Shown here piece after piece: positions 38-14,071 of a DNA stretch of 63,853 nucleotides; the first letter of the stretch is position 1, and every line of letters begins with the position of its first letter. The position numbers and the translations under genes are program-made. Location of the stretch: positions 1 through 63,853 of the IMG/VR virus record IMGVR_UViG_3300036821_000178; one strand, given 5' to 3'. This DNA comes from a virus. Its lineage: Duplodnaviria > Caudoviricetes. The notes beneath the pieces were generated by a model. That model saw nothing but the letters and a program-made list of their open reading frames with translations, made no database searches and had not been told where the DNA came from.

Positions 38-1945
38 TTACGACCAGGTGCCCACGGAGCCGGAGCGGTCCGACTTCTGGATGCCCTGCATAAGGCCACA
101 GTAAAAGGGCGCATTTAGGACAAGAGCTCCGAAAAGGAACATCGAGTACCTAAAGGACGCATCGATCACAGGCCACGAAATGGACAAATAGTCCTGAACC
201 GCCACAAACTCCATCACATTGGACACGTTCGACCACGCGAACGGCATCGTGTAGCTCAGGAGCAGGACGTTGCCCTGCGGCAGCCAGGGGTGGACGACGA
301 CCCGGACGACGGACCGGGTGATCGGGTTCTGGAACTCGGACACGGCCGCGCCCAGGCGCACGCCCGGGACCTCGCTCTGCTCGATGAACAGGCGGTAGTT
401 GGTGGCCGTGCCGGACTGGACGATGTCGTTGCTCAGGCGCATCACGTCGCCGCCCTCGGCGATGATCTCCGCCGGGTCGGCGCGGTACGACCCGTAGGTC
501 GTGTTGCCGGTGCCGTCCCAGAGCTGCTGGAAGGCGGTGTTCAGGTTGGACGTGCGGAGCGTGTCGCCGACGGTCTGGCTGAAGTACCCCGCCTGCCAGT
601 TGGCCGGGTACACGGCCGAGCCGCCGCCCGTGGCGCTGTGGCCGGACAGGACCGCGAACAGGCCTTCCTCGTCGTTCGCCGAGGAAGTGCCCGAATCAGA
701 GCCCGGCGGCTGCGCCGTGGTGGTCGGCAGGGCACCCTGCAGCGTGAAGTACTGGCCGCCGACCTGGGCCTGGAACAGGTGATAGGTCCCGGCCGAGGCA
801 CCCGTGGTGGCGTAGATGTTGTACCACATCGCCCCGGCGACAGGGCTGATCTGGACGTCGACGACCTGGCCGGACGACCAGGCCACAGACTGCGAGGAGC
901 CTGCAGCCGTCTCGCCGAAGAAGGTGGCCGCAGTCACCTCAACGAAGACGTTCGTGGTGATGCCGGACAGGGCGGTCTCGCCGGAGTTGGCCGCGCGGGC
1001 GGTCAGCACCGGCGCCGCCGGGGCGCTCAGCGCGATCGAGGTGGCGCCGAGGTGGCTGGCCTCCTCGTTCAGCATGAACTCCTGCAGGAGCAGGAGGTTG
1101 GCCAGTGCGCTGATGTCTTCGAAGCCCTGACCAGAGAACTGCGCAAGCCAGCTCAGGTTTTCGGAAAGTCCCCAGAACCTGTAAGGAACCTTCAGATCGA
1201 CGGCGTCCTGGGAGCCCGTACCGGGCAGGTTCAGCGGCCAGGTGACCTGGCTGGCGGTGCCGCTGATCGCCGGGGTGTTCGCGGTCTGCACCAGCTCGGG
1301 GATGGCCAGGCGGACGAACTTGCCGCCGCTCGGGCCGGTCTGCGAGCCGGAGATGCCGGTGATGACCTTGCGCTGCCGGATCGTGCCCTGGCCCGGCACC
1401 CGCGGCAGCTTGTTGCGCAGCGGGGAGTAAACCGGGTAGATCAGGCTCGAAGGGGCAACCAGGTCGAACGGGACGAAGCCTGTCGACAGGGGCGACGTCA
1501 GGGTGATCGACTTGCCCAGCGCCTCGCTCAGCTGGTTGTTCAGCTGGCCGACGAGCTGCTGGAGCGCCTGGTTCTGCGGGCTGGCGGACATGAACGCGCC
1601 GAACTGGCCGGCGAACTCGGGTGCCATGCCCTTGATGACCTCGCCCGGGCTGTCAATCCCGGACTTGATCGCCCGGCGGAAGGCCGTCTCGGCCTTCATG
1701 GACCGCCGGAAGATCTGCTCGTCGTCCGACAGCGGCATGTTGCCGCCGACCTTCGCGAAGCCCGCGCCCTTGACCAGGGCGGGCATCTTGTCGCTGAGCA
1801 TGAGGTCGGGGGTGCGGTAGTTGTGCGCGTCCGCGTCGGCGTACCACGAGTCGACGTTGTCGCCGGCCTCGCGGGCAGCCTTCAGGGCCGGCGCTGCGGC
1901 CGTCCCGTACGGGACCTCGGCCGTGGCCAAGGCGGTGTCAGTCAT
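38..1945 (-). CDS. Major capsid protein (putative)
   Basis: 635 aa directly downstream of the protease gene; GGAGG RBS; capsid-like motifs (DLVAPSSLIYPVYSPLRNKLPRV, VVVHPWLPQG). Confidence 0.75.
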   Translation of the reverse strand: MTDTALATAEVPYGTAAAPALKAAREAGDNVDSWYADADAHNYRTPDLMLSDKMPALVKGAGFAKVGGNMPLSDDEQIFRRSMKAETAFRRAIKSGIDSPGEVIKGMAPEFAGQFGAFMSASPQNQALQQLVGQLNNQLSEALGKSITLTSPLSTGFVPFDLVAPSSLIYPVYSPLRNKLPRVPGQGTIRQRKVITGISGSQTGPSGGKFVRLAIPELVQTANTPAISGTASQVTWPLNLPGTGSQDAVDLKVPYRFWGLSENLSWLAQFSGQGFEDISALANLLLLQEFMLNEEASHLGATSIALSAPAAPVLTARAANSGETALSGITTNVFVEVTAATFFGETAAGSSQSVAWSSGQVVDVQISPVAGAMWYNIYATTGASAGTYHLFQAQVGGQYFTLQGALPTTTAQPPGSDSGTSSANDEEGLFAVLSGHSATGGGSAVYPANWQAGYFSQTVGDTLRTSNLNTAFQQLWDGTGNTTYGSYRADPAEIIAEGGDVMRLSNDIVQSGTATNYRLFIEQSEVPGVRLGAAVSEFQNPITRSVVRVVVHPWLPQGNVLLLSYTMPFAWSNVSNVMEFVAVQDYLSISWPVIDASFRYSMFLFGALVLNAPFYCGLMQGIQKSDRSGSVGTWS

Positions 1946-1963
1946 GCATGCCTCCGGGGCATG

Positions 1964-1988
1964 AAAAAAGCCCCCGCAGGGCGGGGGC
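1964..1988 (-). terminator. Intrinsic terminator-like hairpin upstream of capsid gene
   Basis: Minus strand GCCCCCGC-CCT-GCGGGGGC followed by TTTTTT. Confidence 0.6.
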
Positions 1989-2005
1989 CAGAGCGTGCTG
2001 GCGGG

Positions 2006-4915
2006 TCAGGCAGCGGGCCGGACGGCGGCCATCTTGTCGAGGACCGCCAGGGCGCGCTCGCGCACCTTGGGATCGCCGCTGCGGGACTGCATCTCGACGT
2101 AGGACTCGAATTCTTCGCGATCTGCCATGTCGCGGACGCGCACGCGCGTGGCGTGCTCGTCAACGAGGCTCCGCTTCTCCACGGGAGCGGCGGCACCTCC
2201 CCGGGCCATCTGCCCGCGCACGGGGGACAGGGCCGGGTCCGGCTGCGAGCCCAGGTCCTCGACCTGCTTGCGCAGGCCGGCGATCTGGCGCTCGTAGGCT
2301 TCAGCGAGGGGGGCGATCTGCTCGGCGACCAGCGCCTTCACGGCCTCAGCGTCCGTGACGACGCCCAGCTGGCCGGTCAGCTCGGCGGCCTTCTCGACCG
2401 ACAGTGGCTCGGTCAGCACCAGGCCATGCCGGGCGGCCTCGGCCATGAGCTCGTACTTGGACATCTTGCGGCGCTTCTTCTTCCCCCCGGCCTCACCTGG
2501 CGCGGTGCCGGCGTCCTGGTGCGCAGCGCGGGCCCCGCCCGCAGCACCATCGGCCGGGCCGGCCAGGCTCTCGCCCTTGCCGACGCCGGGGACGCCGCCC
2601 TGGTCGGACACGCTCACCGGGCGGGGGGAGGCACTGGCGTTCATGTCGTCGCTCATGTCTGCCTTCCGGCTGGAGGCCATCGGGCACATGTCGGGGAACT
2701 GGGCCGAGATGTGGTCGTGCACGCTCTGCATTGCCGCCCGGGCCGCATCGCGCGCGTTGTTGGTGTAGTAGGTCCTCGACGCGCCGGTGCCGACGGGCCC
2801 GCGGTTGTTCGGGGCGCGGTTGGCCGGGCTGTCGGCCTCGTGGCCGGCGGTGATCAGGCCCCGGTCGAACTGCTCGGGCTCCGGCGTGTGCGCCGGTGAC
2901 GGGATGTCCGGGCCGCCGTTATGCGCCGCATTCTCAGCCGCGTGGCCCGAGGTGAGGTAGGGCCGCTCGTAGGAGCCGGGCTTCGGCGGCTGCGACGGCG
3001 AGCAGCGCTCGTCCGGGTACATGTCGGTGAACGCCTTGTGCAGCGACGCGGCCGCGTCGGCCAGCGCGGCCGGCTCGGCGCCCTTGAGCAGGCCCGCGCT
3101 GGCGGCCAGCGCGGTGAGCTCGGCGGCCTTAGCGCTGTCGCCGGCCTGGACAGCCCGGGCGGCCTCGCCGGTGAACCAGCCCGCGTCGGCGGCGTCGGCC
3201 GCCGACTTCATCGCCGGGTACTCGGCCAGGACCTCCGCCGGGTCGTAGGCGGCGCAGAAGGCGTCGTGCATCCGCTTGGCCGCGTACGGCCAGTTCTGCG
3301 GGATCTCGCCTTCCTGCGCCTTGCCGGCCATCGGGCCGGTCCAGACCGCGTCAGGGACGTTATCGGGGCGCCGGTCTGGGTCAGTATGCATATCCGCCTG
3401 GTGCTCGAGGACCTCGACGCCTGTGGTGCCGTCCGGCTCGCGGTGCATCCCCGCAGACCGGGTGTCGGACGGCAGCGGGCGCGTGCCCTTCTCCGAGCCG
3501 GCCAGCCCGGCGGCCGCGAAGATGGCCTCAGCGGCGTCAGCGGTGATCAGGCCGGTCGCAACCGACTTGCCCACGGTCTCGGCGAGCTGCGACAGCGCAG
3601 CGGCCTTGCGGGCCTTCTTGCCGTCCTTGAGCGGGTTGGCCACGCCGAGCTCCCTCGCGCGCCGGGCGATCAGCTTCTTCGCCGCGGTGACGTTGCCGTG
3701 CCCGGAGCGGGCCAGGACGGCGGCATTCTGCAGGTCGCCGGCGCTGGCGATCGGGTAGCTGCCGTCCGGGAGGGCGTGGCCCTGCGAAGCGAGGCGCTTG
3801 CGCTCGCCGGTACTGATGTCGCGCTTGGCCGCCTCTGGCCCGGCGGCCTTGCCTGCCTCGGCCCCGGCGTCCTCGTCCGCGGCGTCCGCAGGCTCGCTCC
3901 CGGCACCGGAGTCCGGAGTCTCCCCGGCATCCTCGCCAGGCCCGGCCCCGCTGGCCGCCTTGACCAGCGTCAGCGCGCCGTAGGTGCCGCCCTGCGCGGC
4001 CAGCCACCGCCCGGCACCCTCGCGAGTGCCGTCCAGTCCCTCGTCGCCGCCGCGGGCGTCCCACCGCTGCCACTCGGCGCGCTTGGCCAGGTACTCGGTG
4101 CCGCCGATGACGTCCTTGTAGCTGGGCTCGGCGTCCAGCCACGCCTTGCGCTCGGCGCGGTAGGCGTCCCCGGCGGCCTTCAGCGCCGCCGAGCCGTCGA
4201 ACGCGGCCTTGACTGCCTCGCCGCCGTCGTCATCCCCGGCGTCGCCGTCCTCGTCGTCGACCGAGTCGTCCTCGCTGCCGCCGTCGCCGGCTTTGACGAT
4301 GTCGGCCTGGTCGACCTCCTCGTCGCTGCCAGTTCCCTGGCTGTCCTGGTCGCCGGGCTCGTCGTCGACGTCACCGCCGGCGGCCTTGGCCAGCAGGTCG
4401 TCCAGGTCGCCGATCGTCCAGGGCACCTCGTGGTCCTCGCTCTTGGCCAGGGTCAGCTGGCAGCTGCGGTTCGCCGGCCGGTCAACAAGGCTCACCTCGC
4501 AGAGCTCGCCGCCCTCGACGAGGCCGCCGGCGGCCTTGCCGGAGGGGTCGCGGCGGATCACCGGGTTGGAGATGCCGACCGACCAGGCGCGCAGGACCTT
4601 GTTCTTGACCAGCTTCTTGGCGGTGTCCTCGACGATCAGGCCCTTGAGGGTGTGCGCGAAGTCGCCGAGGTCGACCTGCAGGCCGCGGCCTGCCGGGTAC
4701 AGGTGCGGGGAGTGCATCACGCGGAGATTCGGGCCGGAGTCCATCCAGGTCGTCAGGGCCTTCGCCGACCACTGCGGCGAGACAATCTGCCGGTCAGTGT
4801 CGACACTCCCGTCAGTCACGATCCCCTCGACCACGAGGTTGCCGTCGGCGTCTTCCTCGTACTTCGAGATGGGAAAAGAGACGTACGTGAGCTCGTCCGC
4901 GGTGGTGTGAGCCAC
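2006..4915 (-). CDS. Prohead protease / scaffold fusion protein
   Basis: N-terminal HK97-type protease motifs (LRVMH, AWSVG, EVSLVDRPAN); acidic linker; coiled-coil-like C-terminus; GTG start at 4915 after GGAGG. Confidence 0.8.
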   Translation of the reverse strand: MAHTTADELTYVSFPISKYEEDADGNLVVEGIVTDGSVDTDRQIVSPQWSAKALTTWMDSGPNLRVMHSPHLYPAGRGLQVDLGDFAHTLKGLIVEDTAKKLVKNKVLRAWSVGISNPVIRRDPSGKAAGGLVEGGELCEVSLVDRPANRSCQLTLAKSEDHEVPWTIGDLDDLLAKAAGGDVDDEPGDQDSQGTGSDEEVDQADIVKAGDGGSEDDSVDDEDGDAGDDDGGEAVKAAFDGSAALKAAGDAYRAERKAWLDAEPSYKDVIGGTEYLAKRAEWQRWDARGGDEGLDGTREGAGRWLAAQGGTYGALTLVKAASGAGPGEDAGETPDSGAGSEPADAADEDAGAEAGKAAGPEAAKRDISTGERKRLASQGHALPDGSYPIASAGDLQNAAVLARSGHGNVTAAKKLIARRARELGVANPLKDGKKARKAAALSQLAETVGKSVATGLITADAAEAIFAAAGLAGSEKGTRPLPSDTRSAGMHREPDGTTGVEVLEHQADMHTDPDRRPDNVPDAVWTGPMAGKAQEGEIPQNWPYAAKRMHDAFCAAYDPAEVLAEYPAMKSAADAADAGWFTGEAARAVQAGDSAKAAELTALAASAGLLKGAEPAALADAAASLHKAFTDMYPDERCSPSQPPKPGSYERPYLTSGHAAENAAHNGGPDIPSPAHTPEPEQFDRGLITAGHEADSPANRAPNNRGPVGTGASRTYYTNNARDAARAAMQSVHDHISAQFPDMCPMASSRKADMSDDMNASASPRPVSVSDQGGVPGVGKGESLAGPADGAAGGARAAHQDAGTAPGEAGGKKKRRKMSKYELMAEAARHGLVLTEPLSVEKAAELTGQLGVVTDAEAVKALVAEQIAPLAEAYERQIAGLRKQVEDLGSQPDPALSPVRGQMARGGAAAPVEKRSLVDEHATRVRVRDMADREEFESYVEMQSRSGDPKVRERALAVLDKMAAVRPAA

Positions 4916-4933
4916 GGTTCCTCCGAGCATGAG

Positions 4934-4961
4934 AAAAGGCCGCCGGGTATCCGGCGGCCTT
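4934..4961 (-). terminator. Terminator-like hairpin upstream of protease gene
   Basis: AAGGCCGCCGG / CCGGCGGCCTT inverted repeat with T-run on the minus strand. Confidence 0.5.
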
Positions 4962-5017
4962 CGCGTGCATGCGCCCCTGCAGGGCGCCCGGCTATGCGGG
5001 AATGGCGGTGCGGGCGC

Positions 5018-5794
5018 TCAGGGAGCGGGGGTAAGCCCGAGCCAGTATCGTGCTGTCTGCCATGACGGGAATGTGCGCACGAACGGCCGGTCGCCCGGCG
5101 GGGAATAGGGACGCGCTGGCGTCCATACCTCAGTGCCGGGCCCGGCAACGGTCATGCGGGCAGCGGGATTGTCGTCGATGAGGACGCAGGGAGAACCGGG
5201 CCCGTAATGCGCCCGGATGAAGGCAGGCTTCTGGCCCCTGCCGACAGCATACACGTCACACCCTGCAAGGCCCCACTCGCCGAGCCAGCGCATGGTAATA
5301 TCCGCAGCCTCGGGCTCGCGCTCGGTGACGACAAGGGCCCGGATTCCGGCGTCGCGGGCCGCCGAGAATGCGTCGAACGCGCGGAAGTCAGGCGCGATGG
5401 CCAGCAGGAACGCCGGGTCGCGGAACAGTTCCGAGGCAAAGACCCCCTGCTCGGGAGCGAGCACGCCGGTGTCGAGCCGCCCGGGGAAGAACGACTGCGC
5501 CAGCGCGTCGTATGACGTGCCGAAGGCCGCGTTAAGCGAGGCGACCAGCGCCTCGGCGGTAAAGGCGAGAATGCCGTCGCAGTCGAACAGGACATCAGGG
5601 TGATCACGCGCCTGCGCGATACCCGGCGGCCATTCAGGCGACATCGCCGCGGCGATCGTGCGGGGGATATTCCACGCCGCCTCGGGTGCCGGCAGCCCCG
5701 CAGCCCAGGCGGCTGATGCCAGCACCGGGAGGGTAATATTCGCCGGGTCGCCGTGAGTCTCGGCCGGCAGGAAGCAGCCGCAGGTAAGGCAGAT
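5018..5794 (-). CDS. HAD-superfamily nucleotidase-like protein with N-terminal Cys-rich domain
   Basis: VLFDCDGIL (DxD) and LIDD motifs; frame extends upstream to an ATC codon at 5794 preceded by AAAGGAGG. Confidence 0.6.
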   Translation of the reverse strand: MCLTCGCFLPAETHGDPANITLPVLASAAWAAGLPAPEAAWNIPRTIAAAMSPEWPPGIAQARDHPDVLFDCDGILAFTAEALVASLNAAFGTSYDALAQSFFPGRLDTGVLAPEQGVFASELFRDPAFLLAIAPDFRAFDAFSAARDAGIRALVVTEREPEAADITMRWLGEWGLAGCDVYAVGRGQKPAFIRAHYGPGSPCVLIDDNPAARMTVAGPGTEVWTPARPYSPPGDRPFVRTFPSWQTARYWLGLTPAP

Positions 5795-7626: not shown

Positions 7627-8079
7627 GTGAACCTCCATCCAGTGGAGACCCTGGTCACACCAGGCGGGGACCCGGCCGACATCGATGTCGAGATGGTCCC
7701 GGTGATCCGGGCGCTGTGGTCTGCCGGATTCAAGACCGTGAGCTGCTGCCAGGATGCAGGCGAGAGCGGTGGCAGGATCAGCAGGCGCAGTCGTCAGCTA
7801 TGGACCGGCTACGCGCTGATCGAACTGCCGCCTGACGATGCCCTCGTCCTGATCGATGGCGTCAAGGGAACGCTGCAGTTCCGCAAGCGCATGCACTGGG
7901 CCGACTCCGGGGCATGGGAAATGCACATGCCAGTGCTGCCCTACATGCCACCGGAGGAGTTCGCGGGAGTCTACCCGTCGGTGCAGATCCGCTTTCCGAA
8001 AGACCAGCTCGAAGATCTTGCCGAGGTGATCCGCACCGAGTGGCGGCCTGCTGCCCTGGGGGCACGCAGCACTCGCTAG
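7627..8079 (+). CDS. Hypothetical protein
   Basis: 150 aa ORF with GFKTVSCCQD motif; protein-like composition. Confidence 0.55.
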   Translation: MNLHPVETLVTPGGDPADIDVEMVPVIRALWSAGFKTVSCCQDAGESGGRISRRSRQLWTGYALIELPPDDALVLIDGVKGTLQFRKRMHWADSGAWEMHMPVLPYMPPEEFAGVYPSVQIRFPKDQLEDLAEVIRTEWRPAALGARSTR

Positions 8080-8226
8080 TCGGGGCGCTCCCGATGGCTC
8101 CGGTTATGCTCGCGGAAGTCCTGCAGTAGCACCAGCGTGAGGATGGTGGCGCTCAGCAGGAGGTTGACGACGCTTTCGCACAGTACGCCTCCTCGCAAAC
8201 CCGGGCGCCTGCAAAATCGCTCCGAC

Positions 8227-10404
8227 TCATTTATGCGACGCACGCAGGCTCTCCCATTCCGCTAGGGCGCGACGAGCGGCTGCGACTACCTCTGGGTGTA
8301 TGTGACGGTTTCCCCAATGCAGGTCTCCACGGGCCCAGCGTTTTATGGCGTTGATAGCCGTAGCGATAGCCTGGCTTTCGTTCATGGAGTGGTCTCGCAT
8401 CAGGGCCCGGGCGATGTTCTGGGCGTACGCTGGGAGCTGCTGCATGTACCCGACGTGCCGGTCGGGAGTGTGCCAGAGCCCTTCAGTGCCGAGCGGGTGA
8501 TGGACCGTGGAAACGACCGGCGTCTGCGGTGACTTGGCAACAGGCGCAGGAGCGGGCAGGAGAGCGCATCGGCAGTTGTGGGTTAGAATGCCATTGCCGA
8601 TGTACCACCCATTCGCTGCTTCAAGGTTGTAAACGTGCGTCGTTACAACATCCTGCTTGACGTTGACGATCTCGTCGGGCGCTACGTCGCTGGAGAAAGC
8701 GAGAAGTCGCTCGCAGAATCCCTCGGAGTCGACCGAGGCGTCATCCGCCGCCGCCTCATTAATGCTGGCATCAAGCCGCGCGGTCGCAGTGCAGCTATGC
8801 GCGTCAGGATGGAGCAGGCGGGAGCCGACGGACGCGCGGAGCTCGTAGCCGCCGCCCACGAGTCCGTTCGCGGCAAGCCCAAGACTCCGGAGTTCCTCAT
8901 AGCACGCGCTCTCGGCATCGAGCGCAAGGGTGCTGAGCATGGAAACGTCTCCGCGTCCGAGATCATGCTCGCAGGCATGATGAGCAACGCCGGGCTGACC
9001 GTCATCCACCAGAAGGCCATCGGCCCGTATAACGCAGATATCGCTTCCGGCACCGTCGCCGTGGAAGTCCTCGGAGGAAGTTGGCACCGCACCAAAAAGC
9101 ACGGGGAACGTCTTCGCTACATCCTCGATGCAGGGTGGGATGTCATTTACATCTGGGTCGACGGACGCCGCTTTCCACTCGGCCCGCGTGCTGCTGAGTA
9201 CGTAGTCACCTACTGTCAGTTCCGCAGCCGGAACCCATCCGCCGCGCGTGGCTACCGGGTGATTCGGGGTGACGGAAAGCTCGTAGCCGAGGGCGGTGCG
9301 CAGGGTGATGATCTCCCCGACATACTCCCGATCAGTGACCGCCCGGATGTTCCGCCGGCCGAAGCCCTCTACGGCTTCTGTCATTGCGGATGCGGTCACC
9401 TGACTTCCGTCGCGGCCGTGACACGGCGAGAGCGGGGTCAGGTCGCCGGATTCCCGCTCCGCTATATCAGCGGGCACAACAATCCGGCCAGGTGCCGCAA
9501 CGCGAGTTGAGCCGAGGACGCACCGCGGGTGCGCCGGCGGGAACTTGTCTCCCGAAGGGAACCGCTTGCCGATCTCGCGGGACCCGGCAGCCTGGTTAGC
9601 GCGGCAGGCGGCGCAGACGCGGCTGTCGTTCTCGGTCTGCCAGCGGACGCGGGCGATCCCGGCACCGGCATACGCGTCCAGCGCGGCGGCCGAGGAAGCC
9701 CAGGTCACCTCGCTCTGCGCGATGGCCAGCGCGGCGGCGGGGCTGCCGAGGATGGCGGTGATCTCGGCAGCGAGCGAGTCCGCGCCGGCACCGGAGTCCA
9801 GTGCTGCGGTGAGCACCCGGGCGAGCCGGCTGATCCGCGTTTCCACAATCGCGGGAAGGCGGCCCTGCCCCTCGGCCAGGAGGGCATCCAGCGCCGCCCA
9901 GGCTGCTGCGAGCTCACCCGCGCCGAGGACCTGCAGGACTGCCTCGCGGCCGAGTCGCCAGGCCAGCTGCCATAGCTGCCGCAGGACGTCCAGCAGTGCC
10001 GCCGTCAGCGCGGCGGGAACGCCCGCCATGGTGAGGTACAGGCGCGCGTTCGGCCAGGAGGGCTGGCGCTGCGTGACAGGCCGCTGCCGGCGCTGCGGCT
10101 GCCCGGCGGGCGCGGGGCCCGGGGACTGCGCCGGCGGCTCGTGAGGGCGGTGCCGGCGGCGGTGCCGGTGGTGCACGCCGACAGCTTCCTGCTGGCCGGC
10201 GAGCCAGCCCTCGGCCAGCAGGCTCGGGCTGACGGCCGCCGCGAGGGCGGCGGCGATCTGCTGCGCGAACTCAGCGGCGATCTGCTCATCGCGCCACCAG
10301 CCGGGCCACTGCTGGGTGGTGGCCTTGTCCAGCACGTGCCGCTGCACGGTCCGGGCGATGCTGCTGCCGTCTGCCTCGATCGTGACCGGGATGGTCAGGT
10401 CCAC
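8227..10404 (-). CDS. Head morphogenesis (MuF/gp7-like) protein containing an intein
   Basis: WQTENDSRVCAAC and, after intein removal, PPAHPR|CRC; lies downstream of portal. Confidence 0.85.
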   Translation of the reverse strand: MDLTIPVTIEADGSSIARTVQRHVLDKATTQQWPGWWRDEQIAAEFAQQIAAALAAAVSPSLLAEGWLAGQQEAVGVHHRHRRRHRPHEPPAQSPGPAPAGQPQRRQRPVTQRQPSWPNARLYLTMAGVPAALTAALLDVLRQLWQLAWRLGREAVLQVLGAGELAAAWAALDALLAEGQGRLPAIVETRISRLARVLTAALDSGAGADSLAAEITAILGSPAAALAIAQSEVTWASSAAALDAYAGAGIARVRWQTENDSRVCAACRANQAAGSREIGKRFPSGDKFPPAHPRCVLGSTRVAAPGRIVVPADIAERESGDLTPLSPCHGRDGSQVTASAMTEAVEGFGRRNIRAVTDREYVGEIITLRTALGYELSVTPNHPVATRGGWVPAAELTVGDYVLSSTRAEWKAASVDPDVNDIPPCIEDVAKTFPVLFGAVPTSSEDFHGDGAGSDICVIRADGLLVDDGQPGVAHHACEHDLGRGDVSMLSTLALDAESACYEELRSLGLAANGLVGGGYELRASVGSRLLHPDAHSCTATARLDASINEAAADDASVDSEGFCERLLAFSSDVAPDEIVNVKQDVVTTHVYNLEAANGWYIGNGILTHNCRCALLPAPAPVAKSPQTPVVSTVHHPLGTEGLWHTPDRHVGYMQQLPAYAQNIARALMRDHSMNESQAIATAINAIKRWARGDLHWGNRHIHPEVVAAARRALAEWESLRASHK
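8575..9522 (-). mobile_element. Intein in MuF-like gene
   Basis: Starts CVLGST, block B TPNHPV, ends VYNLE...ILTHN followed by Cys; no LAGLIDADG motif seen in the sense frame. Confidence 0.9.
8635..9510 (+). CDS. Putative Vsr/DUF559-like endonuclease encoded antisense within the intein
   Basis: N-terminal HTH (SEKSLAESLGVDRGVIRRRL), SASE, HQKAIGPYNADIA..VAVEVLGGSWH, GWDVIYIW, C-terminal CHCGCG...YISGHN motif. Confidence 0.75.
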   Translation: MRRYNILLDVDDLVGRYVAGESEKSLAESLGVDRGVIRRRLINAGIKPRGRSAAMRVRMEQAGADGRAELVAAAHESVRGKPKTPEFLIARALGIERKGAEHGNVSASEIMLAGMMSNAGLTVIHQKAIGPYNADIASGTVAVEVLGGSWHRTKKHGERLRYILDAGWDVIYIWVDGRRFPLGPRAAEYVVTYCQFRSRNPSAARGYRVIRGDGKLVAEGGAQGDDLPDILPISDRPDVPPAEALYGFCHCGCGHLTSVAAVTRRERGQVAGFPLRYISGHNNPARCRNAS

Positions 10405-10408
10405 CGGA

Positions 10409-13400
10409 TCAGTCCTGCGCGGACTTGGCCAGCGGGATGCGCTCGCGGTTCATCTGGCCGTCCCACGGGCCGTCGGCCTCGTCGACCTCGCCGATCCACG
10501 CGGATACCTGCGTCTTCCCGGCGTGCTTCAGGCCGAGGGTGCGGTGCCAGCCGTCGGCGATCTTGTACTTGCCGCCGCCGGGGGTGTCGACCAGGACGAC
10601 GGGATGCAGGTGCTGCCCGGCGCTGGCATCGGCGGCGATCTGCGCGACGCGCTGCTCACTGCGGGCCCCGCCGGGCCGGCGCCCCATGTCGATGTCAGAC
10701 AGGCTGACGGTGACCGGGCCGCGCCACCGGGCCTTCCTGACCCAGCCCAGCACGCTGGCCGGGTACTGGCGGGTCAGGTAGGCGTAGACGTGCTCGGTGT
10801 CGTCGCCGTGGCCATGGCCGGCCGTGACTTCCCCGGCGGCCTCGGGCAGCAGCCCGGCGGCGATGTCGCAGGCCTGGTCGGCGGTAAGTCCCTTGCCCAG
10901 ATCCTCGGACAGCAGTTCCAGCACCTGGGCCGGGATGTCGCGCGGCTCCCACGCGGCCAGGTTCCCGCCGCGCCGCAGGTGCGACTTGAGCAGGCTCAGC
11001 TCGCGCTCCGCGCCGGCTGACTTGCGCACCGGCCGCCGCGTGCCCGCCAGCCCGCTCTCGGCCCGGGCGTTGGCCATGTCGGCCTCATGCGCGGGCGTCG
11101 GCCGGGCGTTCGCGGCTTCCTGCTGCCGGCCGGTGATCCCGGCGGCCTGGTCGCGGCGCGTCGAGCGCGTGGCCCGGTTGCGCGGCACCCCGGCCCCGGC
11201 GCCGGCGGGCAGCGACGGCGCACCGGTGTGCCGGATGTCGCCGGGCTCCTCCAGGTCGGCCGGCTGGCCCGCGCCGGGCGGCTTCGGGGCTGGCGGCGCA
11301 TTGCCCGGTGCCGGCGCGCCGCCCTGCGGGTTCGCGGTGGCCGTGGAAATGCCGGTGAGAGGAACGAAACCACCCCACTGGGTAGCCCATCCCGGGTCGG
11401 ACGTGATAGGAAGGCCCCACGGGTCGCGGCCAAGCTCCTGCCGCGCCTCGTCAATAGAGCAAAGACCGGCACCCAGCTGCTCGACCAGAAGATCGGTGAG
11501 CAACTTGGAGTCTTCATCTTCTTCAAGTCCCTCCCATTGCCACTCCATATCGTGCATTCCGCACACGTCCTGAATAATGCGATCGAAAATCGCCATCTTC
11601 AGGAAAAGGAGAAGCGGGACGGTAGACTTGCGCTCCTGGATATCCTGGGCCGCGGTGGCCATCTGACGTGCGGCACCGGACGCGACCGTGGTCGAGACCT
11701 CGGGCATGATGCCCAGCTCGAACGGCATTACGTCGAATGCCATGCAGTTATGGCAAACGCCGCCAGTCGTCACGTAAGAGTTGTCGTCCTCCACTTCTAG
11801 GTTATAGACGACGTGTCCGGTGTAATCGGACAATTCGTTAGACCGGACCGGCGACGTCAGGTGCGGGCCGTCGATACGGTAGGTGCCGCGTCGCTCCTGC
11901 TTCCGGACGACCTGGAGAACGTAGATGGTGTCGCTACCCTGGATCTTCCTTCCGTCGATCTCCGACTGAGTCTGCCGCTGAGCACGCAACTGTGACTCCA
12001 GTCCGCAGGCCAGTGCGACCATCCGCATCTGCCAAGCCAGGGTTTCGCTCGTGGTGTAGCCGCGCCAGCCGCTTGGCGTCAGCGTTCCGTCACCAGCGCT
12101 CCAGCCCCAAAGCAGGGATGCGTAGAACTCCGCCGAGCCATCCCAGGCCCATTCGGGCAGCTTCTTACTCTGAGCGGTACCACAGGAGAAAAGTTCCGCC
12201 AGCAGAACACTGGAGCATTCCACTCGCACGCACTTCTCATTGAACATCGGAGTGATCTTCGCGGTAAGTCCGAACACTGCAGAAAGGTCATCGAGTACCT
12301 GCTGCTGATAGGCGACTTCGTCTTCATGGAACGCCCAGGTCACCTGCCCGGCACCAGTGCACCCTTCGGCCATGTAGAAACCGAGGAGGCGTCCGAGGGC
12401 GGCGTTCATTGGCACCTCGCCCGGGATCGGGTTGCAGCGACCAGCGATCTTCAGAAGACCGTCGCCCGGATCAAGCACCCACTTCCGCCTGCGTACGTGG
12501 TCCATGATTCGCAGCCGTGCATCAGCTGAGCCGGTCACCGGGAGCGGGAGCGTCAGCGCGTCGAATTCGCCGCCTGTGTCCTTCGGCCGCGCGTCGCTCG
12601 CCGCAATCCAGCGCGTCTCCTCGTAGGACTGACGATGAGTCCGCGACTGGCTATACCGGGCGCTCCAGATGGGATGATTGCCGGTGACCTCAAGCGGGGC
12701 GAGCCCCTTGGCGGTGATCTTCCGTACTGGCGCGTGTACCGGATTTGACATGGTCTTGCTCACCGCACGCCAGCGTCCGCGATGAGTCATGACCCGATCG
12801 CCGACGCGGACGTCCTCGATTGCCACGAGCCCGCGGCGAGTCATCACCTTCGTGCCAGGAACGCAGCACGTCTGGATCATGATGACGTTGTCGAATGCGT
12901 CGGCAAGCGTCAGGGGCTTCTGCGGATCGACTTTCGAGCCGCCCGGCAGGACGATAATCTTGTGCTGCCAGGACTGGTCCGTGGCCACCGCATTAAGGGC
13001 GTCCTGCAGTTCCCGGAGCTGATTCGGGGTCATGTTGGGATCGCCGGGGGAGACGAACATGCCCGGCACTGACCGGTCGTCGAAGTAGTTGAGGACCCAC
13101 TGCTGCTTGCGCAGCCCGGCCATGATCGGCATGATCGCCCGCTCGACCGGCGCCTGCCCGTAGGGCGACCACACCCGCGGGGTGTACGGCAGGTACATCA
13201 GCTGCGAGTCGCTGTACTCCGCGGCCAGTCCCTTGTCGTCGGTGTCCTCGTCTAGAATCAGGGTCATAAGGTCAACACGGGGCACACCGTGCAAATACTG
13301 CTGAAAAGCGACGTTGGGGGGCGGCGGGCGCTCGCCGCGGACGTTGACGAGGGGCCTGACCAGAGAGCCGTCGATCAGGTCCAGGGCGGCGACGTCGGAC

Positions 13401-14071
13401 CCGAACAGTCCCTTGCCGTGCAGCCGCGAAGGGTGGATGTAGATCGACAGGGCGTCGGTGACGAGCATCTCCTCGAGGACCGCGTCGAACCAGGCGGTGA
13501 AGTCGGAGTAGTTCGGGTCCGGCCGCCGGAAGAACCGGACGGCCTCGGCTCGGCGGGCCGCGAACTCGGCCATTCCCTTGTGGTCGCCGCGCATGGCCTT
13601 GGAGGCGTGCTTGGTCGGCGCGATATCCCAGCCGACGCCTCGCAGTTCCGATTTGCGTAGATTTATGCAACTACGCGCTACGGAGTACAAGTCCGCTAGG
13701 GTGCGTAGTGTCTGAAAGTCCGCGAGCTTTCCGATACCCTCAGTTCCTGGTGCAGCCTGGGGCATATCCCAGCCCACCGGGTACTGCCAGCGACGCGGCT
13801 GGGAGTGGCCCTCGCCCGCAGGCGGCAGGTCGACCGGGACCGGGCCGATCGGGGACAGCGGGCCGAACATGCCGCCCAGGAACTGCATCCACTCGCGTGG
13901 CAGAGCCTGCTGCTGGCCGTAGGCGTGGCCCGAGGTCCACTCGTTGTAGCTGGCCACCAGGGGCGAGGGGCCAGGGCTCAGGAACGGCGGCGGCGCGGAG
14001 CCGTAGCCGCCCATCTGCGAGGGCGCGGTCGCCTTCAGGGCACGCATGATCGCCCGCTGGCTCGTGGCCAA
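10409..14071 (-). CDS. Portal protein with intein and C-terminal ParB-like domain
   Basis: Portal motifs (YGQAPVE, SIDEARQELGRDP); C-terminal PVVLV...IADGWHR. Confidence 0.85.
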   Translation of the reverse strand: MATSQRAIMRALKATAPSQMGGYGSAPPPFLSPGPSPLVASYNEWTSGHAYGQQQALPREWMQFLGGMFGPLSPIGPVPVDLPPAGEGHSQPRRWQYPVGWDMPQAAPGTEGIGKLADFQTLRTLADLYSVARSCINLRKSELRGVGWDIAPTKHASKAMRGDHKGMAEFAARRAEAVRFFRRPDPNYSDFTAWFDAVLEEMLVTDALSIYIHPSRLHGKGLFGSDVAALDLIDGSLVRPLVNVRGERPPPPNVAFQQYLHGVPRVDLMTLILDEDTDDKGLAAEYSDSQLMYLPYTPRVWSPYGQAPVERAIMPIMAGLRKQQWVLNYFDDRSVPGMFVSPGDPNMTPNQLRELQDALNAVATDQSWQHKIIVLPGGSKVDPQKPLTLADAFDNVIMIQTCCVPGTKVMTRRGLVAIEDVRVGDRVMTHRGRWRAVSKTMSNPVHAPVRKITAKGLAPLEVTGNHPIWSARYSQSRTHRQSYEETRWIAASDARPKDTGGEFDALTLPLPVTGSADARLRIMDHVRRRKWVLDPGDGLLKIAGRCNPIPGEVPMNAALGRLLGFYMAEGCTGAGQVTWAFHEDEVAYQQQVLDDLSAVFGLTAKITPMFNEKCVRVECSSVLLAELFSCGTAQSKKLPEWAWDGSAEFYASLLWGWSAGDGTLTPSGWRGYTTSETLAWQMRMVALACGLESQLRAQRQTQSEIDGRKIQGSDTIYVLQVVRKQERRGTYRIDGPHLTSPVRSNELSDYTGHVVYNLEVEDDNSYVTTGGVCHNCMAFDVMPFELGIMPEVSTTVASGAARQMATAAQDIQERKSTVPLLLFLKMAIFDRIIQDVCGMHDMEWQWEGLEEDEDSKLLTDLLVEQLGAGLCSIDEARQELGRDPWGLPITSDPGWATQWGGFVPLTGISTATANPQGGAPAPGNAPPAPKPPGAGQPADLEEPGDIRHTGAPSLPAGAGAGVPRNRATRSTRRDQAAGITGRQQEAANARPTPAHEADMANARAESGLAGTRRPVRKSAGAERELSLLKSHLRRGGNLAAWEPRDIPAQVLELLSEDLGKGLTADQACDIAAGLLPEAAGEVTAGHGHGDDTEHVYAYLTRQYPASVLGWVRKARWRGPVTVSLSDIDMGRRPGGARSEQRVAQIAADASAGQHLHPVVLVDTPGGGKYKIADGWHRTLGLKHAGKTQVSAWIGEVDEADGPWDGQMNRERIPLAKSAQD
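11747..12868 (-). mobile_element. Intein with LAGLIDADG homing endonuclease in portal gene
   Basis: CCVPGTKV start, TGNHPI, LLGFYMAEG and LLWGWSAGDG, ends VYNLEV...VCHN|C. Confidence 0.9.

Follow-up and report, generated by a model that had tools for sequence, protein, structure and literature searches.

Where does an intein keep its homing endonuclease when none can be recognized in its own reading frame? This question is raised by a MuF-like minor capsid gene of an uncultured soil virus (Duplodnaviria; Caudoviricetes; IMG/VR record IMGVR_UViG_3300036821_000178, positions 1 to 63,853), the whole 63,853-nucleotide stretch of which is referred to here as the window. The gene harbors an intein, opposite which the other DNA strand carries a 291-codon open reading frame (ORF), and a preliminary description of the locus had proposed that this antisense ORF encodes the homing nuclease and is expressed on its own. 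On the evidence presented here, the locus very probably represents a mobile intein with its homing endonuclease encoded as a separate, backwards gene inside it.

The MuF-like minor capsid or head morphogenesis gene is located on the minus strand (8227..10404) and encodes a 725-amino acid precursor, which matches the Pfam Phage_Mu_F family (Bitscore: 32.1; cut-off: 29.6) as well as PHROG head and packaging families. Its N-extein (9523-10404) and C-extein (8227-8574) flank a class-1 intein of 316 amino acids (MuF residues 295-610; 8575..9522; minus strand), inserted at the site PPAHPR|CRC, where the extein junction corresponds to the conserved MuF domain end. The intein begins with C1 in the motif 'CVLGSTRV', contains T85 and H88 in block B and ends in THN (H315-N316), with Cys as the +1 residue, while C1, T85, H88 and N316 are invariant in 51 relatives (intein-frame alignment A2). 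Furthermore, the sense frame is recognized by the curated models TIGR01445 (intein_Nterm; Bitscore: 28.3; cut-off: 24.5; residues 1-92), TIGR01443 (intein_Cterm; Bitscore: 15.8; cut-off: 15.6; residues 296-316) and Pfam PF14890 (Intein_splicing; 36.0; cut-off: 35.8), in each case by a narrow margin, and a profile of the 51 relatives matches solved inteins with e-values down to 3.5e-10. The splicing motifs are thus intact, as the preliminary description had stated, and its observation that the sense frame lacks an endonuclease agrees with the absence of any endonuclease family match among the Pfam, PHROG and NCBIfam models.

The N-terminal splicing region of the intein (residues 1-110; blocks A, N2, B and N4) occupies 9193..9522 and the C-terminal region (residues 292-316; blocks F and G) 8575..8649, both on the minus strand. 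The intervening middle (residues 111-291; 8650..9192; minus strand) is open and unconserved save for two short motifs, 'P.RIE.V' (9118-9138) and 'EDFHGDG' (9052-9072), and matches no family. The former motif (intein residues 129-135) aligns to 'IPARVQALADAL' of the Mtu RecA mini-intein. An intron was considered as an alternative identity for the element and rejected, since no Rfam RNA family is found within 8000-10500.

The antisense homing endonuclease gene (8635..9510; plus strand; 291 amino acids; GTG start and TGA stop) is predicted from its ORF, its homologues and an AlphaFold model. It lies codon-on-codon with the intein frame, such that nuclease codon position 1 pairs with intein position 3, and its GTG start is placed opposite His296 in block F, while the TGA stop (9508-9510) is placed opposite Ser5 (TCA) in block A. 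Both splicing regions had been described as overlapped by this ORF. On the N-terminal side this is so, as the last third (3′) of the nuclease ORF covers the whole region, while on the C-terminal side the overlap is restricted to about five codons of block F.

The length of the ORF alone is no proof of an antisense gene, given the 68% guanine-plus-cytosine (GC) content of the window, the mere 2.2 antisense stops per 316 intein codons predicted from extein codon usage and the many other antisense ORFs of at least 150 amino acids in the window. Other long two-strand overlaps can be observed at 290-2899 (plus) against 38-1945 (minus) and at 2921-5065 (plus) against 2006-4930 (minus), and a further plus-strand ORF is found at 9545-11020; these are typical chance antisense frames of high-GC genes. 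GC by codon position likewise does not distinguish the intein frame from the nuclease frame in the window, since the register pairs codon position 1 with position 3. More telling is the behavior of the two frames among relatives. A total of 84 loci, comprising the window, three phage records and the best 80 of 561 confirmed IMG/VR stretches, were compared, and all 84 have an open frame on the opposite strand that keeps to the same codon register along the entire nuclease match. The preliminary description had named openness of both frames in homologous inteins as a check and stops in homologues, or a want of nuclease homology, as grounds for refutation; no such stops are present. In the elements of 43-55% GC, TTA, CTA and TCA codons occur 37 times in the intein frame against 109 expected, a count which includes the nuclease stop of each element and further codons in some of the promoter stretches. 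Conversely, in 52 stop-free inteins these three codons are absent from the nuclease frame, where 191 would be expected from extein usage.

A tblastn search with the nuclease identified 127 phage records, with 29-42% identity and e-values down to 3e-39 among the 40 listed. These derive from phages of Gordonia, Salmonella, Pseudomonas, Klebsiella, Vibrio and other hosts, and among the matches listed the nuclease is always found opposite a MuF or head morphogenesis coding sequence (CDS). At the DNA level similarity is limited to a single record and 83 nucleotides, and this near absence of DNA similarity alongside many protein matches shows that conservation operates at the protein level. In the protein collection, 144 homologues are present, sharing up to 69% identity, some of which are named 'very-short-patch-repair endonuclease' by their source, and relatives in the clade of the window are 53-69% identical over their full length. 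An exhaustive profile search retrieved 1606 clusters (50% identity; e-value: ≤1e-30), the best 150 of which match nearly the whole profile. Among 73 members, family matches include MTES_1575 (47/73) and HTH_58 (38/73). As judged from these sequence comparisons, the plus-strand ORF belongs to a large family combining a helix-turn-helix (HTH) domain with a Vsr-like nuclease.

The AlphaFold model built from alignment A1 (73 homologues) has a mean pLDDT (predicted local distance difference test) of 90.3 and a predicted template modelling score of 0.74, while folding from the single sequence is poor (pLDDT: 45.7). It comprises an N-terminal HTH DNA-binding domain (residues 9-47; 8659..8775), a helical linker, an α/β nuclease core (residues 103-220; 8941..9294), predicted with confidence to adopt the Vsr-like, PD-(D/E)xK-derived fold, and a less confident C-terminal Cys/His module (residues 247-283; 9373..9483), all encoded on the plus strand. 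The key residues of the core are D135 (9037-9039), E144 (9064-9066), H151 (9085-9087) and R159 (9109-9111), also on the plus strand. D135 and E144 are invariant, H151 is retained in 63/65 elements, and all of the invariant family residues (D135, E144, G148, R159 and G212) are present in the nuclease of the window. Each nuclease feature named in the preliminary description can be recognized (an HTH, a Vsr/DUF559-like core and CHCGCG...GHN), and the search of both translations that it had called for yields intein models in the sense frame and a Vsr-like nuclease in the antisense frame.

The Cys/His module, with the consensus CxCGCG...G.P.R(F/Y)..GH(N) in alignment A1, matches PHROG 25114 (e-value: 1e-6) and is carried by 43 of 252 family proteins, all in the clade of the window. 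It probably represents an added DNA-binding or zinc module. Searched alone, it had no phage tblastn match at an e-value of ≤1e-3, no NCBIfam or Pfam family and Atlas scores of at most 0.86. It may resemble motifs at the N-termini of actinobacterial HNH endonucleases. Elsewhere in the family, one or more extra N-terminal HTH repeats are found in many members (L004, L006, L001 and L003, as well as many proteins from the profile search, with two to five matched stretches), and the members with extra repeats have correspondingly longer inteins, up to 369 amino acids.

The question of which frame is conserved where was addressed by reading one codon alignment in both frames. This alignment contains 65 unique elements, ranging from 0.43 to 0.70 in GC and sharing a median nucleotide identity of 49%. 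Across nuclease residues 3-182, pairwise BLOSUM scores average 1-3 when read as nuclease and approximately 0 when read as intein, and the third position of the nuclease codons shows the highest entropy. The order is reversed in the region facing blocks N4, B and N2 (nuclease residues 195-230), where the intein frame is the more conserved, while in the stretch of the Cys/His module the nuclease frame again prevails (BLOSUM: 3.5 versus 1.2). This module lies opposite a clade-specific insertion after block A (intein residues ~15-57; 9352..9480; minus strand). As compared to the common short-type inteins in the intein-frame alignment, 46-58 residues are added between blocks A and N2 in the window and in L004-L007, its nearest relatives, and within this insertion the intein frame is unconserved and the opposite nuclease frame conserved. 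With homology and fold, this frame-specific conservation establishes the antisense ORF as a real gene.

Two stretches depart from the pattern of one frame at a time. Opposite block B, the nuclease motif 'YRVIRGxG' is the mirror of 'xVTPNHPV'. Nuclease G214 is retained in 63/65 elements with a free wobble base, while the intein residue varies, and at G212 the codon is GGT or TGT without exception, complementing the Thr85 codon, which is invariant. Selection is interleaved on both frames here, and in the model the last nuclease helix (residues 184-199) and hairpin (206-221) fall within the intein-constrained stretch. The second of these stretches, a patch at 9052..9072, seems constrained on both strands, with intein residues 151-157 (E-D-F-H-G-D-G) lying opposite the catalytic strand of the nuclease (residues 140-146; x-V-A-V-E-V-L) with its invariant E144. 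D152 to D156 are at least 90% conserved in alignment A2, on par with the splicing blocks. Nuclease wobble bases are fixed here across 43-70% GC (GCC: 58/65; GTG: 56/65; GAA: 56/65), in contrast to the free wobble of neighboring conserved nuclease Gly, Ala and Arg codons, and at nuclease column 140, which varies (P/S/A/R/T), the intein Gly is retained in 55/65 elements. The fixed wobble bases and the Gly retained opposite a variable column suggest that selection acts on EDFHGDG at the protein level in the intein frame. The motif may resemble the F-x-G-D-G of LAGLIDADG block C and could represent a relic of such a block. The proposal that some 875 nucleotides code for meaningful protein on both strands can accordingly be upheld in part. 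True double constraint is confined to patches, and nuclease residues 3-182 are, save for two short patches, conserved in the nuclease frame only.

The nuclease gene is nested closely within the intein. For 52 of the 65 elements, the two ends of the intein could be located (inteins of 268-369 amino acids), the other 13 being dropped where block F or C1 was unmatched by the patterns or a stop occurred in the extracted stretch. In these 52, the nuclease stop is found opposite intein residue 2 (18 elements), 3 (11), 5 (6), 7 (5) or 9-24 (11), that is, opposite residue 2, 3 or 5 in 35 and within the first 24 residues in 51, while in the one remaining element it is located seven codons outside the intein. 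At the other end, block F was located by pattern in 57/65 elements, and the eight misses are left out of the counts of starts, Shine-Dalgarno motifs and -10 hexamers. The nuclease starts with ATG (46/57) or GTG (10/57), opposite the block F His codon or at most four codons downstream, and is preceded by about 8 nucleotides by GGAGG (29), GAGG (9), GGAG (8) or AAGG (5), such that a motif is present in 51/57 and missing in six. A hexamer matching TATAAT in at least five of six positions occurs in 43/57 elements, as compared to 4.3/57 in random segments of the same loci (maximum 9; 200 trials). Its distances are fixed, placing it opposite block G or immediately beyond; of the 43, 28 are perfect matches, a TG extension is present in 14 and a -35 element matching in at least four of six positions in 18. 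The antisense of the C-terminal splicing region thus corresponds to the putative nuclease expression signals, which in the window comprise a -10-like hexamer TAGAAT (8584..8589; plus strand), opposite block G Ile312-Leu313 (ATT CTA) and 45 nucleotides before the GTG start, and a Shine-Dalgarno-like AAGG (8623..8626; plus strand), opposite the block F codons for Asn-Leu and 8 nucleotides before the start.

The intein codons themselves appear bent toward these signals. The block F Leu codon is CTC in 43/49 elements, against 29% in exteins, and the residue three before the terminal Asn has an xTA codon in 32/52, against 11% in exteins. The proposal of an antisense-encoded homing nuclease with expression signals of its own is supported, at the level of sequence, by the family, by the register kept in 84/84 loci and by the conserved start, Shine-Dalgarno and -10 motifs. 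In a minority of elements the penultimate block G His is itself replaced, giving VKN (L016, L031, L047, L058, L062, L065, L074 and L046) or SSN (L028, L055 and L067), with the +1 Cys following in both types. On their plus strand, a -35 element matching TTGACA in at least five of six positions is found 16-18 nucleotides before the -10 hexamer, which is TATAAT in all but L046 (TACCAT). These elements may have traded a splicing residue for a promoter element. Just downstream of the MuF stop, the plus strand of the window also contains a 150-amino acid ORF (7627-8079) that matches no PHROG. Should this ORF be real, read-through from it along the plus strand might extend into the nuclease gene as well.

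Presence or absence of the element can be followed among the Salmonella Jerseyviruses, where 348 Jerseyvirus-like records match a 1501-nucleotide query spanning the element and 70 cover at least 80% of it. Among the matches listed, most of the other Jerseyvirus records align in two pieces spanning 683-685 nucleotides. The empty site of phage FSL SP-101 reads PPAHPN|CRSATAP and the occupied site of phage PK2 PPAHPN|intein|CRSTTAP, so that the element shows exact presence and absence among close relatives. The empty site is also found in Escherichia phage buks, a Jerseyvirus-like phage of E. coli K-12, and the element is carried by Gordonia terrae phages such as Malisha and Fosterous. The MuF gene with its intein bears differing annotations (hypothetical protein, structural protein, 'NAD+--asparagine ADP-ribosyltransferase'). 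A call for the antisense gene is present in Salmonella phage PK2, one of three intein-bearing feature tables examined, while the entry for PK1 lists extra hypothetical CDSs.

We propose that a late minus-strand message would be translated straight through the 316-codon intein, the Hint splicing domain of which would be formed by an N-terminal part (residues ~1-140) and a C-terminal part (~280-316), with the approximately 170 codons between them merely kept open as a loop. Splicing would then join ...PPAHPR to CRC..., yielding mature MuF. A short plus-strand transcript could arise from the -10 element opposite block G, and the nuclease would be translated from the ribosome-binding site and GTG opposite block F up to the stop opposite intein residue 5, giving a 291-amino acid product with HTH, Vsr-like nuclease and Cys/His module. 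In a mixed infection, the MuF allele lacking the intein would be cleaved by this nuclease close to the site encoding PPAHPR|CRC, and recombinational repair would copy in the whole intein together with the nuclease gene. Such an arrangement might also uncouple the timing of homing from late-gene expression.

Several observations weigh against this interpretation of the locus. The window has weaker variants of the signals than most of its relatives, namely AAGG, GTG, a TAGAAT hexamer matching in five of six positions and a -35 element matching in two of six, and a consensus promoter scan of 8100-9800 predicted no promoters. No RNA sequencing run is listed as containing the DNA of the window, for which one DNA run, perhaps of the source sample, is listed, and neither an intein-less allele nor a close relative of its own MuF extein is found in the phage and IMG/VR collections, so that recent mobility of this particular copy is not to be inferred. 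The confidence of the model at nuclease residues 184-222 could be boosted by covariation in the intein frame, and one of the two IMG/VR search patterns mirrors block B of the intein, so that intein-nested copies are favored in the set. Finally, the A1 family profile had no link to 3R3P in HMMER at an e-value of ≤10; it does reach the DUF559 protein 3hrl (e-value: 1.1e-4).

The weak signals, the empty promoter scan and the lack of an intein-less allele would suit a nuclease gene that is real by descent and now a silent or decaying passenger in this phage, in which case the intein, in effect a mini-intein with a long loop, would be passed on vertically. Apparent vertical inheritance of several VSR-like groups is reported by Gosselin, Arsenault and Gogarten (bioRxiv 10.1101/2025.01.02.630785). 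The ORF of the window is, however, intact over all 291 codons with each of its invariant residues, the family-wide selection pattern includes its clade, and GTG starts and AAGG motifs also occur among the relatives, as counted above. Silence or decay is as such an unlikely, though not negligible, description of this copy.

Homing nucleases can take part in phage-phage competition, and a transcript from the antisense strand would be complementary to the MuF message throughout. The nuclease or its RNA might therefore serve the phage, either by excluding competitors or by down-regulating MuF through RNA pairing. We regard this as improbable. The gene is nested exactly inside the intein boundaries, from promoter to stop, and comes and goes with the intein, as expected of a selfish unit, while a version acting through RNA alone would leave the protein-level selection on the nuclease frame unexplained.

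An even smaller likelihood attaches to a functionally fractured MuF, of which two halves would be made and trans-spliced. The middle of the sense frame is unconserved and probably unfolded, and Vsr-like nucleases are known between the halves of split inteins (Dassa et al. 2009; PMC2677866). The sense frame is, however, unbroken here and in each of the 84 loci, and the complete avoidance of TTA, CTA and TCA in the nuclease frame (0 versus 191 expected) counts against a split, as it would be needless in a split gene. Furthermore, internal starts or stops that would delimit two halves are not seen, and the nuclease is encoded on the opposite strand, unlike in the fractured genes. A chance open frame that encodes nothing, for which the frequency of codon-aligned antisense ORFs in high-GC genes and the uninformative GC by codon position might be cited, is refuted as far as computation goes by the confident Vsr-like fold, the thousands of homologues, the conservation of the nuclease frame, the openness at 43-55% GC and the codon counts, and its probability is next to nil.

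A mobile intein carrying its own backwards nuclease gene accounts for these features, and we see about equal grounds for and against extending this to a fully two-way-coded unit. In the extended form, the nuclease expression cassette would lie antisense to blocks G, F and A, with intein codons bent to it and the block G His replaced in a minority; the last nuclease helix and hairpin would be encoded opposite N4 and B under interleaved selection; a second, non-canonical insertion in the N-terminal splicing domain would, in this clade, exist only for the Cys/His module; and EDFHGDG would be selected on the nucleotides of the catalytic strand, hinting at a role for the 'junk' loop. The type would then rank among the commonest phage intein families, missed by annotation. 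One-gene-per-locus annotation misses a nuclease family of at least 1606 clusters (50% identity) and labels the intein decayed or 'mini'. The locus provides a natural case of two proteins, a predicted promoter and a ribosome-binding site on complementary strands of approximately 950 base pairs, in which it can be seen which frame wins where, and it supports the repeated, independent association of splicing domains and nucleases. Vsr-like homing nucleases in which the HTH and Cys/His parts are modular represent candidates for site-specific nucleases, while the presence/absence polymorphism of the Jerseyviruses represents a tractable system for homing tests.

The nearest system for comparison is found in the same phage. 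A second intein of 373 amino acids (11747-12865; minus strand) is located in the portal gene (10409-14071) and carries an in-frame LAGLIDADG-type motif, LLGFYMAEG. Both inteins have class-1 splicing blocks, and their blocks F and G are very alike (hhalign e-value: 8.3e-5; 29 columns), while these two blocks alone were aligned when the MuF intein profile was compared with the portal intein. The portal intein has its endonuclease in frame, whereas the MuF intein has none in frame. The C-terminal end of the portal protein also shows a weak ParB-like PHROG match (e-value: 9e-4).

In the literature searches, only the preprint of Gosselin et al., the paper on fractured genes and that on I-Bth0305I proved relevant, and no paper was found on the copies in Salmonella phages. 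Anti-sense LAGLIDADG endonuclease ORFs are known in inteins (Synechocystis DnaX and others; Gorbalenya 1998, as cited in 10.1101/2025.01.02.630785). These share with the window a nuclease opposite an unsplit intein, while the nuclease fold and the host genes differ. Dassa et al. (PMC2677866) describe split inteins whose halves are separated by a free-standing endonuclease gene of the Vsr-like or GIY-YIG type, and the window has in common with them a separate Vsr-like nuclease gene inside the intein, between N4 and C2. In fractured genes, as there described, the host gene is divided over two ORFs that share their orientation with the nuclease, while the window has an unbroken 725-amino acid ORF with the nuclease antisense and in register; it accordingly falls outside that arrangement. 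With I-Bth0305I of the EDxHD family (Taylor et al. 2011; PMC3239194), the nuclease of the window shares an N-terminal HTH-type region followed by a C-terminal Vsr-like catalytic domain and residence within a self-splicing element of a conserved phage gene. From D to H, the spacing amounts to 16 in the window and 17 in I-Bth0305I (catalytic D196 and H213). In the model, the nuclease of the window has the Vsr-like fold and the N-terminal HTH/NUMOD-type region of this family, and I-Bth0305I is the studied enzyme of closest domain layout.

The overall layout has already been described by Gosselin et al. (10.1101/2025.01.02.630785), who report, for MuF-like minor capsid proteins of actinobacteriophages, full inteins whose VSR-like homing endonuclease is encoded anti-sense, and the window represents a further member rather than something new in kind. 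An unsplit intein, an antisense VSR-like ORF and a MuF-like host protein are all found in the window, and relatives of its nuclease are located opposite the MuF CDSs of Gordonia phages. For its own member, the preprint gives an HHpred match to 3R3P (4.6e-5), and in its section 15 Affeca and Angelicage are placed under endonuclease VII-like inteins. The MuF genes of both phages hold a VSR-like antisense match in our tblastn search, and these may be different inteins of the same phages. As presented, the preprint covers actinophages only and calls the type rare, while the window derives from an uncultured soil virus and the element is found here in Salmonella, Pseudomonas, Klebsiella and Vibrio phages, in 561 IMG/VR stretches and in the 1606 clusters retrieved at an e-value of ≤1e-30. 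The main text of the preprint contains neither 'promoter' nor 'ribosom', and its supplementary tables may hold such details or closer relatives. In the window, the ORF spans the whole N-terminal splicing region and the putative expression signals fall inside blocks F and G. The Cys/His module opposite an insertion of 46-58 residues in the N-terminal splicing domain, and the co-conservation of EDFHGDG with the catalytic strand, may furthermore represent additions to the known layout.

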